Counted from the first letter of the stretch, positions 39,073-44,521 are shown. The stretch is 64,000 nucleotides of DNA from Pseudomonadales bacterium (GCA_028281605.1 JANQJO010000114.1:20711-84710); one strand, 5' to 3'. Numbers and translations are program-made. The notes: generated from the sequence alone by a model not told the origin.

Positions 39073-40356
39073 ATGAAAGTCTTAATCGTAGGTAATGGTG
39101 GACGAGAACATGCGCTTGCGTGGAAAGTTGCATCTTCTCCAAAAGTTACTCAAGTGTATGTGGCACCAGGTAATGCTGGTACAGCACTTGAAGCAGGCAT
39201 TGAAAACATTGATATCGCAGCCACAGACATCCCTGCCTTAGTGCACTTTGCCCAAACAAATGCAATTGGCTTATGCATCGTAGGGCCAGAAGCTCCTTTG
39301 GTGATGGGTATTGTTGATACTTTTCAAGCACAAGGCTTACCCTGCTTTGGGCCAACCCAACAAGCTGCGCAACTGGAAGCCAGCAAAGCCTTCACTAAAC
39401 GTTTTTTAGATCGATATCAAATTCCAACAGCAAACTATGCAACTTTTACTGAATACGAACCTGCGATCAATTACGTAAAAACTCAAAACTTTCCCATCGT
39501 TATAAAAGCTGATGGGCTTGCTGCCGGCAAAGGTGTCATCATTGCTCACACACTCATAGAAGCGAACACTACACTGACCAATATGCTTATTGATCAGCAA
39601 TTCGGTTCAGCCAGTCAACGTGTCGTCATTGAAGAATTTTTACAAGGAGAAGAAGCCAGCTTCATCTGCTTAGTAGACGGCACTGCTGTTGTTCCACTGG
39701 CCAGTTCTCAAGATCACAAAGCTCGTGACGAAGGTGATAAAGGACCCAACACGGGTGGCATGGGGGCCTACTCCCCTGCCCCTATCATCACACCAACCAA
39801 CCATAAAACCATATTAGAACAGGTCATCTACCCAACGGTACAAGGTTTAGTTGAAGACCAAACCCCCTATCGAGGCTTCCTATATGCAGGCCTGATGATC
39901 ACAGCCGACGGCACACCTAAGGTCCTAGAATTTAACTGTCGCTTTGGTGATCCTGAAACACAACCGATTTTAATGCGGTTAAAATCAGATTTAGTTGAAC
40001 TGTGTCTGGCCGCACTGTCAGGGCAACTAGAAAAACATAGTTCGCTGGATTGGGACGAGCGCACAGCACTGTGTGTGGTCATGGCATCAGGAGGTTATCC
40101 AAATGCCTATAAGAAAGGACTTCCTATCAATGGCCTAAACAACATTGAACAAAGCAATGACTTAAAAATTTTTCATGCAGGCACAACCTTAAAAAAAGAC
40201 CAAGTACTGACAGATGGCGGGCGGGTTTTATCTGTTACAGCCCTGGCCGATACAGTTGCACAGGCTCAAGAGAGAACCTACAACGCCGTAAAACAAATCG
40301 ACTGGGCTGATCGTTTTTACCGTAAAGATATTGGTTATAAAGCTATTGTGAATTAG
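39073..40356 (+). CDS. purD: phosphoribosylamine-glycine ligase
   Basis: MKVLIVGNGGREHALAWK, IKADGLAAGKGV, EFNCRFGDPETQ. Confidence 0.95.
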   Translation: MKVLIVGNGGREHALAWKVASSPKVTQVYVAPGNAGTALEAGIENIDIAATDIPALVHFAQTNAIGLCIVGPEAPLVMGIVDTFQAQGLPCFGPTQQAAQLEASKAFTKRFLDRYQIPTANYATFTEYEPAINYVKTQNFPIVIKADGLAAGKGVIIAHTLIEANTTLTNMLIDQQFGSASQRVVIEEFLQGEEASFICLVDGTAVVPLASSQDHKARDEGDKGPNTGGMGAYSPAPIITPTNHKTILEQVIYPTVQGLVEDQTPYRGFLYAGLMITADGTPKVLEFNCRFGDPETQPILMRLKSDLVELCLAALSGQLEKHSSLDWDERTALCVVMASGGYPNAYKKGLPINGLNNIEQSNDLKIFHAGTTLKKDQVLTDGGRVLSVTALADTVAQAQERTYNAVKQIDWADRFYRKDIGYKAIVN

Positions 40357-40873
40357 TGTCATTACCGAAGGAAACTGTCGAACTAATTAAAAAGGAACTG
40401 TTAACATCAATGCTATCAACCATTAAAAATATTCTGGGTATGAAAAACATCATCTCTCACCCCTTATCAATTCGGAATTATTACAGCTACAGCGATTCAT
40501 ACTTCCATGGTACTGGGTTCAGGCCTTGTGGATTTACTTCGATTCGGAGACGGTGTATCCGAAGGAGGGCTTGCAGGCTGGGGAAAGGACGGATTAAGAT
40601 TACTTGGTATTGCTGGACCTGCAGGAAAAGGATTTCAAATATTGAAAAGCGCAAAACACACCAATATTGCAAAACTCATTGTTGATATCGGTGGCCCCCG
40701 GGTGTTCATGGGTTGCATCTACGAAGGCTGTTGTACAAGTAGGCCAAAAAGTAAATGGGTTTAATTCGTGCCTACCAAATTGCAAGCTACTCTCGATAGC
40801 AGGGTTGATTCCTATCTACCAGATTGCAAACCACACTCGATGGAGCATAACGTCCAACTCAGCGGGTAATTGA
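40356..40873 (+). pseudogene. multiply frameshifted toxin-like ORF (Gly-rich pre-toxin-like segment plus Cys/His-containing C-terminal fragment)
   Basis: Three overlapping partial ORFs in three frames (40356-40685, 40444-40764, 40667-40873) can be spliced conceptually. One junction lies at a GGCCCCCGGG run near 40690. Content includes LVDLLRFGDGVSEGGLAGWGKDGLRLLGIAGPAGKG, then PGCSWVASTKA...ANHTRW. Confidence 0.35.
40757..40798. repeat. 42-bp direct repeat, copy 1 (GGGTTTAATTCGTGCCTACCAAATTGCAAGCTACTCTCGATA); a degenerate third core copy lies at 40815-40843
   Basis: Read directly. 40/42 identical to 42158-42199. The core CTACCA[A/G]ATTGCAA occurs three times. The third copy is out of frame relative to the first, so the conservation is at the DNA level. 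Confidence 0.7.
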
Positions 40874-40920
40874 AACGCAGCGTACATTGATCCGCTGTAG
40901 TTTTTGTTAGACATTTTTCG

Positions 40921-42157: not shown

Positions 42158-42199
42158 GGGTTTAATTCGTGCCTACCAAATTGCAAACTACTCTCAATA
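42158..42199. repeat. 42-bp direct repeat, copy 2
   Basis: GGGTTTAATTCGTGCCTACCAAATTGCAAACTACTCTCAATA, 1401 bp downstream of copy 1. The two copies bracket the two-gene cassette. Confidence 0.7.
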
Positions 42200-42385
42200 T
42201 CGTGACGCATATTTCTTCTAAGATTACTGACACAATCTACTGTTGCTCATTATGTTACAAAACTTTAAACTAGAAAAGCCATCTTTATTAACCCCAAATA
42301 GTCATTGACCTCAAATAGCCGCTAGCGCGAAACAGGCTAAATCCATTGAGAATAACAGTTTGTGTAAAATAGACTGGTTATCAAG

Positions 42386-44521
42386 CTATTGTGAAACAAT
42401 AGTCTGTTTTTGATTAACCACTGTTTGCAGATACTCTGTCAAAATTTTTCTTTCTGAATTATCTAAAGTTCTAAAGCGAGCTGGCGGCATAGCATGCAAA
42501 TGATCATAAGGTAAATTAATACGCTCCTGCGCAAGCATTAACGCTTCCACACTCATTTGATTGAGATTCACATTGAAATTAGCTCTAGAAATATCTTGAT
42601 CTAACACATCATTATGGCACTGCGTACAAGCTTGCGTCAAAATACCCAAACCATCTAGATTGGCTTTAACTTTAAATCCAATATCTCTAATTTCATCCTC
42701 TTTAAATATTTCTCGTATATCAGGTAGATCAACAATTTCACCGGCAATAAATGCTTTATAAGAAGCAGCCATTTGACCCAACTTCACCGGATCACTGACT
42801 TTAACATCGTGATAAGGCACCTGAATAATTTCTCCACGTACATTTCTGTCATAGAGTGCTAACCAATTTGCACTGACACCGGCTATCGTATTATCAGCAG
42901 GTTGGGCTGGATTACTTTCAGAAACTTCAGTCTCGATGGTCAATGAATCAAAACGGCCTTGTGTAGAATTACGATTAAATCCATTACCAAAACCCATTGC
43001 CAGTAAAAAACTTTCTAAACGTGCTGGATCCGATTGAGCGACCAATGAACCTGGAATTCCCCCATATTCTTCATTAGCATCATGAGCACTAAAATAGTCT
43101 TCAAGCAAGGCTTGACCACCGGCCCTATCATTTCTCATAAAACCTGTCCATGGATCGTTCAATTCCTGCATAAGCAACGTCTTTTGAGCATTAGGTCCAC
43201 CGGACTGATGGCACTGACGACAATCAACCAATGTATTTTTCAAATCTTCTTCATGATACAAAGTCCAAGAAACAAAGTTTTTCTCCACCGCTTCTGTAAG
43301 TAAATCTTTATTCGAGCACGTACCTGTTTCATTACAAGCTTGTTGAAAGTTTAATAAGTAAAACTGCAGGTCCTTATTATTTTTGGGATCATTGGGATTC
43401 TCTGAATCAAAGTGACCTGCAATGATTTCTACAAATTGCTCACCACGTACAAACCCCATTAATACAAACCCTTCCTCTTGTGCTCGATTACTAAATGAAT
43501 CAGAAATTTCCTCAACTGCACCAGAAACACTACACGAACTGGAAGCACTGCTAGACCCAGATGAGCTTGCAAAACTCGAAGAACTACAAGAGCCAGCAGG
43601 ACCAGAGACGCTACAAGAACTAGAAGCACTGGCAGATCCAGATGAGTTCGAAACACTGGCAGAGCTACTGCAAGAATTAGAAGATGCTACCGATTTTTTT
43701 TTAAATCTATTATTTGATGAAAATAAAATCACCCTGGGATTGATGGCATTAGTAGATCTCATAGCCAGAGAAGTTGAACGACCTGCCAAAACAAAATCGG
43801 GATTTCCCATCGTAGCATTAGCCTCATTAAAACTAAGACCCAATACATTCTGCAAATCTTTCAAACCGGTTATATTAGGTATATTTTGCCCACAAAAAGC
43901 TTGCGTTACTTTATTTTTAACACCCTGATTTACCATTCTATCACAAACAACTTTCAACTGTTGATCACCACTGAACAGCTGCTCCAGTGTAAACATATCA
44001 CGCTCTTTGGGAATATCGTCATTCAAAATAGTAACAGAGTGCTCAACAATCTCACCCACATCAACACCAGCAATTTTGTCTATCTTTATTGAAAAAGTTT
44101 CATCATTTTCATAAAAATCTTCTGCCATAAGAACAGCTGTAATAACAAACTCAGTACTACCCACCGGGATCGAAACCCTCTCTGAGGCCAATTCAAAATC
44201 TTTGCCTTGAACGGCTGTCTCAGCAAAAACAGAATAGCCCACAGCTACAACTTGATCCGTAGACCTTGAAAACTTGACAACAATCGGGTGCGACTGAGAA
44301 TCTTCTAAAACTTGTGAATTGTTCGCAGCAAAACTCACAGTCAGTGCTGGTAATTCCGGAACTGGGTCAGGCAGGTCATCAGGAGGTAAGCCGTTATCAA
44401 CATCTGGATCAGGTATAACATCTGTCGCTAAATCAGGGTTATAATAGCACCCAAAAACTCCGACCAAAAACAAATATACGTAAAATATCCTTTTTATTAT
44501 TTTATCAAACATACAAACCAT
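42386..44521 (-). CDS. lipoprotein with a Calx-beta domain, a Ser/Cys-rich linker and two CxxCH haem-c motifs
   Basis: Lipobox LVGVFG|C. Calx-beta-like block at aa 58-168 (VAVGYSV..ETAVQGKDFE...ETFSIKI...VTILNDD). CRQCH (aa 434-438, nt 43208-43222) and CTQCH (aa 632-636, nt 42614-42628). Confidence 0.6.
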   Translation of the reverse strand: MVCMFDKIIKRIFYVYLFLVGVFGCYYNPDLATDVIPDPDVDNGLPPDDLPDPVPELPALTVSFAANNSQVLEDSQSHPIVVKFSRSTDQVVAVGYSVFAETAVQGKDFELASERVSIPVGSTEFVITAVLMAEDFYENDETFSIKIDKIAGVDVGEIVEHSVTILNDDIPKERDMFTLEQLFSGDQQLKVVCDRMVNQGVKNKVTQAFCGQNIPNITGLKDLQNVLGLSFNEANATMGNPDFVLAGRSTSLAMRSTNAINPRVILFSSNNRFKKKSVASSNSCSSSASVSNSSGSASASSSCSVSGPAGSCSSSSFASSSGSSSASSSCSVSGAVEEISDSFSNRAQEEGFVLMGFVRGEQFVEIIAGHFDSENPNDPKNNKDLQFYLLNFQQACNETGTCSNKDLLTEAVEKNFVSWTLYHEEDLKNTLVDCRQCHQSGGPNAQKTLLMQELNDPWTGFMRNDRAGGQALLEDYFSAHDANEEYGGIPGSLVAQSDPARLESFLLAMGFGNGFNRNSTQGRFDSLTIETEVSESNPAQPADNTIAGVSANWLALYDRNVRGEIIQVPYHDVKVSDPVKLGQMAASYKAFIAGEIVDLPDIREIFKEDEIRDIGFKVKANLDGLGILTQACTQCHNDVLDQDISRANFNVNLNQMSVEALMLAQERINLPYDHLHAMPPARFRTLDNSERKILTEYLQTVVNQKQTIVSQ
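43520..43687 (-). repeat. in-frame imperfect tandem duplication encoding a Ser/Cys-rich low-complexity linker
   Basis: Two ~27-aa units, (N/G)SCSSS..SSSGS.SASSSCSVSG, at aa 279-334 of the 711-aa protein. Near-identical DNA strings gcactgc/gcagacccagatgag are visible. Confidence 0.6.

Follow-up and report, generated by a model that had tools for sequence, protein, structure and literature searches.

How did about 2 kb of DNA come to lie at the very end of a housekeeping gene without disabling either that gene or the one that converges on it from the opposite strand? The question is raised by the 3' end of purD in a stretch of 64,000 nucleotides (the window, at its full length) from a Pseudomonadales bacterium (GCA_028281605.1 JANQJO010000114.1:20711-84710), an uncultured gammaproteobacterium of low guanine-plus-cytosine (GC) content. 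An earlier note on this DNA had pointed to a 21-bp direct repeat at the purD terminus and proposed that the segment between its two copies is an islet inserted at the end of the gene. We find that positions 40353-42374 are a real, well-delimited insertion scar with composite, partly decayed content. The features that define the scar, numbered from the first letter of the window, are as follows.

39073..40356, + strand: purD (phosphoribosylamine-glycine ligase), intact, 427 amino acids (aa), ending ...DIGYKAIVN-stop; GARS_N/A/C domains, E 1e-34 to 1e-80
40332-40352: upstream copy of the 21-bp repeat (attL-like), TGGTTATAAAGCTATTGTGAA, coding for the purD codons G-Y-K-A-I-V
40353..42374: islet proper, the 2,022 bp separating the two repeat copies
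42375-42402: downstream copy (attR-like; the repeat itself is 42375-42395) followed by ACAATAG; presumably the ending that purD first had, G-Y-(K>Q)-A-I-V-K-Q-stop
42386..44521, - strand: convergent lipoprotein-like gene, 711 aa, with a Calx-beta domain and CxxCH haem motifs; intact, its stop (42386-42388) inside the downstream repeat

A duplicated purD terminus marks an insertion scar

The repeat is as first described: its copies are identical at 20 of 21 positions, with a single mismatch (A40339 vs C42382), and lie 2043 bp apart. A pattern search allowing up to three mismatches found these 2 copies only in the 64-kb window, and none of 100 dinucleotide-preserving shuffles yielded any match at that threshold. 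The TTAG immediately after the upstream copy provides the last base of the final purD codon (N) and the present stop. In the reading frame of purD the downstream copy translates as T-G-Y-Q-A-I-V-K-Q-stop, in agreement with the C-terminal motif DIG[YWHF][RK]A[IVL] conserved among the compared purD loci. The alternative ending GYQAIVKQ-stop claimed for it holds, with its stop moved from 42399-42401 to 42400-42402. The claimed overlap with the stop of the convergent 711-aa gene is also confirmed.

The mismatch suggests which copy is the displaced one. The downstream copy carries Q at a position occupied by R or K in every compared purD locus that shows it, and the A/C difference falls within 11 nt outside the coding sequence of the 711-aa gene; the downstream copy is therefore the one freed from purD selection. 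The C-terminus of the 711-aa protein is of normal length relative to its homologues, indicating that both flanking genes are intact.

Identity between the copies ends abruptly on both sides, resembling an att core and unlike a long duplication that has decayed evenly. Similarity beyond the 21-mer is not significant (with the 21-mer removed the best local score is 10.0, matched by 223 of 300 shuffles), and a decayed long purD duplication is ruled out by this absence of residual similarity. The 21-mer was found neither in the viral contig collection nor in the 166 fetched loci. The reading of the 21-mer, or of the inner repeat D1 described below, as a common repeat was rejected, as the window holds only the copies described here. 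An independent Logan assembly of run SRR20820735 (13,470 nt) is 100% identical across both junctions, and the agreement of two assemblies makes misassembly unlikely.

The islet combines a dead gene with a caspase-like toxin-domain pair

The islet is a composite of a frameshifted, truncated pseudogene and a toxin-immunity pair, the latter bracketed by direct repeats of its own. Its accessory, horizontally mobile content bears out the suggestion that the segment is insertion-like. The features inside it are:

40356..40759, + strand: pseudogene of a protein family here called family X, with at least 2 frameshifts (near 40470 and 40700) and only residues ~1-130 remaining
40757-40798 and 40801-40842: copies 1 and 2 of D1, a 42-nt repeat, in tandem, 74% identical to each other
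40921..41289, - strand: partner or presumed immunity protein, 122 aa, with an N-terminal membrane helix and conserved Cys (CxxC...C...C); intact
41286..42008, - strand: standalone toxin-domain protein, 240 aa, caspase-like (clan CD) fold; intact
42114-42135 (CCGGCGG/CCGCCGG) and 42149-42160 (CCCC/GGGG): two GC-rich hairpins between the toxin start and D1 copy 3, abutting copy 3
42158-42199: D1 copy 3, 95% identical to copy 1

Several lines of evidence suggest what the intact pair, whose two genes overlap, may do. The 240-aa protein has 93 homologues, mostly standalone proteins of ~231 aa from marine gammaproteobacteria, with one annotated Flavobacteriales metagenome-assembled genome and many metagenomic sequences among them. 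It aligns (E 1e-34) to the C-terminal portion of P0208 and P0212, both "RHS repeat-associated core" proteins, and the alignment begins directly past the core-end motif ...NNPxxxxDxxG (in P0212 it covers residues 75-272, after ...NNPINLVDPDG). His81 (SHG) and Cys149 (HGCN) are invariant across 35 sequences of the family. The AlphaFold (AF2) model of the protein has a predicted local distance difference test (pLDDT) score of 91.5, and its best matches in the PDB are the cysteine protease domain (CPD) of MARTX, caspases and the TcdB CPD, all of them weak (E 2.5e-3, template modelling (TM) score 0.3-0.4). The 122-aa protein shares 45% and 34% identity with the genes that follow toxin homologues in Agarilytica rhodophyticola CP020038.1 (L084) and in a second locus (L082), and a partner of this type lies directly downstream of every examined toxin gene whose contig continues past it; it is presumably the immunity protein. 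Homology to the C-terminal tip of Rhs proteins, a caspase-like fold with a His/Cys dyad and an adjacent small partner gene are what is found in polymorphic-toxin cassettes, and on sequence and model the pair fits their Tox-Caspase class. Zhang et al. 2012 (PMC3482391) describe that class, as well as toxin-immunity cassettes that stand alone in polymorphic toxin systems. The toxin and immunity functions of the pair are putative.

Elsewhere the pair occurs in unrelated bacteria, in a P2-like prophage tail module, beside a resolvase on a metagenome contig and often at contig ends. In the tail module of a P2-like prophage of Agarilytica rhodophyticola (L084 7125-9746) the two genes and a 94-aa open reading frame (ORF) separate the spike gene gpV (Phage_base_V) from gpW, a placement that may point to delivery by a contractile tail or to hitch-hiking on one. 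Homology between toxin modules, at both the DNA and the protein level, ends at the gene borders. PADLOC, PHROG and NCBIfam contain no family that matches toxin or partner; in particular, no known defence protein model in PADLOC places the pair among anti-phage defences. The phage collection gave no toxin match and the plasmid collection a single weak one, which lies on a plasmid of Helicobacter cinaedi. The annotated ~21.6-64 kb of the window showed no full-length Rhs, PAAR or VgrG gene.

The family X gene of the islet is dead, judging from its sequence. Its GTG start overlaps the purD stop (TAGTG). By tblastn it runs in frame 1 at 40462-40698 and in frame 2 at 40697-40759, where homology ends (~residue 130); the N-terminal 35 codons were placed in the third frame by eye only. 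When its longest open frame was used as query in an exhaustive HMMER search, 131 relatives were returned (best 4.8e-25), query residues 6-87 aligning with residues 29-110 of the relatives. Full-length members are ~280-450 aa and have conserved GGPxCSWV and GH...RIMDR motifs (Cys and His); some carry a C-terminal LysM or PG_binding_1 domain, and no Pfam family matches the family itself, which may consist of peptidoglycan-directed effectors. The family, seen at loci L092-L164 as well as in the window, also has a conserved N-terminal hydrophobic region, and a ~100-aa ORF often follows the gene. Family X genes failed as pointers to an intact parent element: none of the 73 loci fetched adjoins purD, the toxin or the partner gene, and the neighbours in one examined locus were unannotated small ORFs.

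The D1 repeats bracket the toxin-immunity pair, and copy 1 starts exactly where family X homology ends, at the truncation point of the pseudogene. D1 was found nowhere else in the window, in the viral contig collection or in the 166 fetched loci; Rfam gives no match for it, and its structure is neither attC-like nor a dyad. A nested att-like duplication is one possible origin, a recombination scar another. Readings of D1 as an integron attC, a Xer/dif-like site or an invertase site were set aside, no fitting motifs being seen by eye. The GC-rich hairpins have a fold z of about -3 on either strand, and Rfam gave no credible match in 39-45 kb, hairpins included. We also rejected the idea that D1 and the hairpins are part of the toxin-immunity module, because homology with its counterparts elsewhere does not extend past the genes.

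Foreign origin and the search for an empty site

Composition does not prove that the islet is foreign. The toxin and immunity genes have a GC content of 34%, within the spread of the window's ORFs (mean 39.7%, standard deviation 4.1%; cheZ 31%). Distribution provides the better argument: the best match of the toxin is 72% identical vs only 65-66% for purD of the same organism, although purD was searched in 5.8 billion proteins, and the homologues of the pair occur in mobile contexts, which together suggest a foreign source. The pseudogene next to the pair likewise points to accessory DNA that is decaying.

An allele of the locus that lacks the islet would give the most direct comparison. The protein search returned no purD between 100% and 66% identity; the 90% protein cluster of purD has one member, and no allele ending ...KQ-stop is on record. 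Scanning the genome contig collection with purD retrieved only loci at 56-63% identity, in a scan saturated by a conserved peptide, and the closest homologues of the 711-aa protein, at most 62% identical, do not adjoin purD. As the databases searched hold no close relative, no empty site could be found; we regard this search as a dead end and not as evidence against insertion. The lack of an empty-site comparison limits every mechanistic claim made below.

Proposed site-specific integration followed by decay

Common to all reasonable readings of the locus is that DNA entering the last codons of purD supplied the gene with a different final residue and stop codon, while the native terminus ended up downstream. 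The reading we tentatively prefer is site-specific integration of a larger element at a 21-bp attB and later loss of its recombinase, the result being a remnant similar to a cis-mobilizable element (CIME). The direction of these events and the recombinase itself are what we infer. The incoming DNA would have brought its own last base and stop for purD (...AIV-N-stop), and the original ending (...AIV-KQ-stop) would have been displaced 2,043 bp downstream, where its 17-nt overlap with the stop end of the 711-aa gene persists. In the reconstructed ancestor, or empty site (...GATATTGGTTATMAAGCTATTGTGAAACAATAGTCTG...), purD shares 17 nt with the 711-aa gene, and the element would have integrated at an attB spanning that overlap. 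Owing to the 21-bp duplication, both overlapping genes survive such an insertion; since an insertion into the overlap destroys one gene unless the overlap is duplicated, this may explain why only an event of this kind survived. Internal deletions would then have removed the recombinase and most of the element, with the dead pseudogene and the intact caspase-like toxin/immunity pair as the remainder, the pair probably being retained because loss of immunity is costly or because it is useful in competition.

The repeat is short, near-perfect and sharp-edged, the reading frame is preserved and internal decay is visible, all of which favour integration followed by decay. Direct repeats, as expected at the ends of an integrative element, are present in the 21-bp copies. 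Other classes of element fit less well. An insertion sequence or transposon was rejected for want of terminal inverted repeats and a transposase, and a 21-bp duplication exceeds the target-site duplications known to us. An integron cassette or a cluster of attC sites lacking an integron integrase (CALIN) was likewise rejected: no consistent RYYYAAC/GTTRRRY pair with proper spacing was seen by eye in D1 and its flanks, and no IntI was found in the islet or in 21.6-64 kb. The window contains no tRNA or tmRNA, which removes these as integration targets. Loss of the recombinase is a documented outcome, CIMEs being decayed integrative and conjugative elements (ICEs) or integrative and mobilizable elements (IMEs) with attL and attR kept and their integration and transfer genes lost (PMC5704250).

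Several observations weigh against integration by a recombinase. Family searches found no recombinase, integrase or transposase among the ORFs of the islet, as the earlier note had held, or among those of 21.6-64 kb. By eye, the 21-mer lacks the dyad symmetry typical of recombinase core sites, and the inner 42-nt D1 repeats lack an explanation. The GC content of the toxin-immunity genes is unexceptional, and neither an empty site nor a related intact element was found in the collections searched. Finally, the one comparable purD locus, described next, has the same architecture with 314-nt repeats and no integrase, which would point to a recombination route. The proposal that purD once ended at the downstream copy and that an incoming element supplied a new terminus is supported as regards the working upstream terminus and what looks like a displaced purD ending; a recombinase as the agent of the insertion is conjectural. 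The interpretation is plausible, not proven, and a credible integrase-free alternative exists.

Possible terminus displacement without an integrase

In that alternative, a serious rival that we consider less likely than integration, DNA of a related strain in which the islet followed purD recombined homologously inside or upstream of the resident purD on the left and was joined illegitimately on the right, 28 nt before the resident purD stop, so that the resident terminus was left as a 28-nt orphan. The repeat would then represent two diverged purD-end alleles and not an att site, akin to new Rhs/CdiA tips displacing old ones.

A parallel comes from a scan of 80 other purD loci for duplicated termini, of which one was positive. 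In Gilliamella sp. Pra-s52 (L015 10982-15596, NZ_WTEY01000001.1) three copies of the final 314 nt of purD, 97-98% identical, separate two tandem cassettes of ~1.8 kb, each with a 103-aa membrane protein and a PAAR-DUF4225 toxin, of which the first copy is frameshifted. The two proximal copies end ...EREQNGHKS-stop, and the distal copy, ending ...EREQNK-stop, looks native and keeps the terminator. A "core" of 314 nt means that this repeat is not an att site, and the cassettes contain no integrase. Just downstream of them (L015 16245-16445) are four 28-nt repeats (CCTTAACGCCGTATAGGCGGTTTAGAAA) with a 60-nt period, which look like a small array of clustered regularly interspaced short palindromic repeats (CRISPR) of a type I-F-like kind.

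Toxin cassettes in a purD 3' end between repeats and without an integrase give displacement a direct precedent, and three details of the present locus agree with it. Once a 3-nt indel is allowed, the two endings align through the stop (AAT TAG TGT vs AAA CAA TAG TCT), as diverged alleles would; the overlap of the pseudogene start with the purD stop is operon-like and expected if the donor had purD followed by the pseudogene's gene; and the missing dyad symmetry and recombinase need no special account. Recombination of cassettes at gene 3' tips is moreover a known mode in polymorphic toxins (PMC3482391). However, displacement requires that the donor's purD was near-identical, and a relative of that sort is not known; it only shifts the question of how the islet first reached purD, and it calls for a one-off type of event that we judge less common than site-specific integration. 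The rarity of such duplications, seen in only 1 of the 80 other loci, also counts against it.

From the two cases, one with a 21-bp repeat and one with a 314-nt repeat in two distant gammaproteobacteria, a wider proposal can be drawn: that the purD 3' end is a recurrent landing site for toxin-immunity cassettes, which enter by integrase-independent, terminus-duplicating recombination that spares purD and any overlapping convergent gene and orphans the native ending. We consider this improbable; were it so, the inner 42-nt repeats could have been left by a repetition of such recombination.

Less probable readings

The earlier note had also left room for a cassette mobilised in trans. The chance is slim, in our view, that the islet is still mobile as an att-flanked cassette, excised and integrated in trans by a recombinase from another part of the genome or from a co-resident element. 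Both repeat copies are almost intact, as is the toxin-immunity pair, and excision would be predicted to give the circle junction ...AAAATAGAC-TGGTTATMAAGCTATTGTGAA-TTAGTGTCATT... Pseudo-SCC elements (SCC, staphylococcal cassette chromosome) lack a recombinase and are moved in trans or in cis. CIMEs, too, are known as recombinase-less movable elements (PMC5704250). However, the core has one mismatch and the decay of the pseudogene suggests long residence, and there is no further 21-mer or islet DNA in the collections searched and no polymorphic allele in the protein collection.

That there is no insertion scar at all, the repeat being a chance match, a local duplication that diverged in an old intergenic region or an assembly artefact, is highly improbable: the unexceptional GC content and the lack of a known empty site would allow it, but the shuffles, two assemblies identical over 13.5 kb, content that is accessory, patchily distributed and partly decayed, and a downstream copy that reads as a purD terminus speak against it.

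Genomic surroundings

The islet lies in the core chromosome. Upstream are the flagellar and chemotaxis genes cheA, cheZ, fliA, flhF and flhA, then dusB-fis-purH-purD, of which purD is the final gene; downstream of the 711-aa gene follow an OmpA-like gene, pgl-eda, a GGDEF-EAL gene, lnt, corC, ybeY, phoH, a rhomboid gene and valS. Between the flagellar genes and dusB, at 32406-35372 on the - strand, lies a gene whose 988-aa product contains an animal haem peroxidase domain (E 3e-69). The 711-aa protein contains a serine-rich low-complexity linker of ~70 aa, and a 549-aa relative (P0222, 54% identical) is encoded on another contig of the same run, SRR20820735.

Comparison with known systems

Elements that end in the last codons of a housekeeping gene and preserve its frame are familiar from staphylococci, where SCCmec and pseudo-SCC elements at the 3' end of rlmH (orfX) are flanked by direct repeats of ~15-20 bp, keep the frame and include recombinase-less variants. 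The position of the islet in purD is of the same kind. SCC elements require Ccr serine recombinases, and they are far larger than the islet and have resistance genes as cargo, whereas no Ccr-like gene was seen at the islet. In Escherichia coli, phage 21 and e14, which have an integrase, supply icd with a replacement 3' end of ~165 bp. There, as at purD, the target gene stays functional through its replaced 3' end, but at purD only the last one or two codons are replaced.

The islet is like CIMEs (PMC5704250) in having no recombinase and visible internal decay. It differs from them in that no related intact ICE or IME is known for it and its repeats are putative att sites, and further in its size of only 2 kb, its uncultured low-GC gammaproteobacterial host and its toxin-immunity cargo. 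With polymorphic-toxin cassettes (PMC3482391) it shares a toxin domain that is also found after an Rhs core and an adjacent small conserved partner. At rhs and cdiA loci toxin-immunity pairs recombine at the gene's 3' tip and the old tip is left downstream (PMC3482391), whereas the tip displaced here belongs to purD and not to a toxin gene. The Gilliamella locus is alike in having toxin-immunity cassettes in the purD 3' end, a duplicated terminus, a distal native ending and no integrase; it differs in the length of its repeat (314 nt, not 21 nt), in its tandem amplified cassette and in having its PAAR-DUF4225 toxin on the purD strand.

Significance

The islet is an ordinary scar of horizontal gene transfer and does not overturn the current understanding of genomic islands; only the Gilliamella parallel and the unexplained inner repeats could go beyond a known kind of insertion scar. 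It is a clean example of foreign DNA entering a pair of overlapping convergent genes and killing neither, by way of duplication of the overlap. It also brings to light a two-gene module that is widespread but uncharacterised: a caspase-like toxin domain standing alone (93 homologues), together with a small membrane partner. The module travels among prophages, islands and chromosomes, and its toxin domain is shared with Rhs proteins. Together with the Gilliamella locus, the islet suggests that the purD terminus is worth a survey as an insertion hot spot for competition genes.

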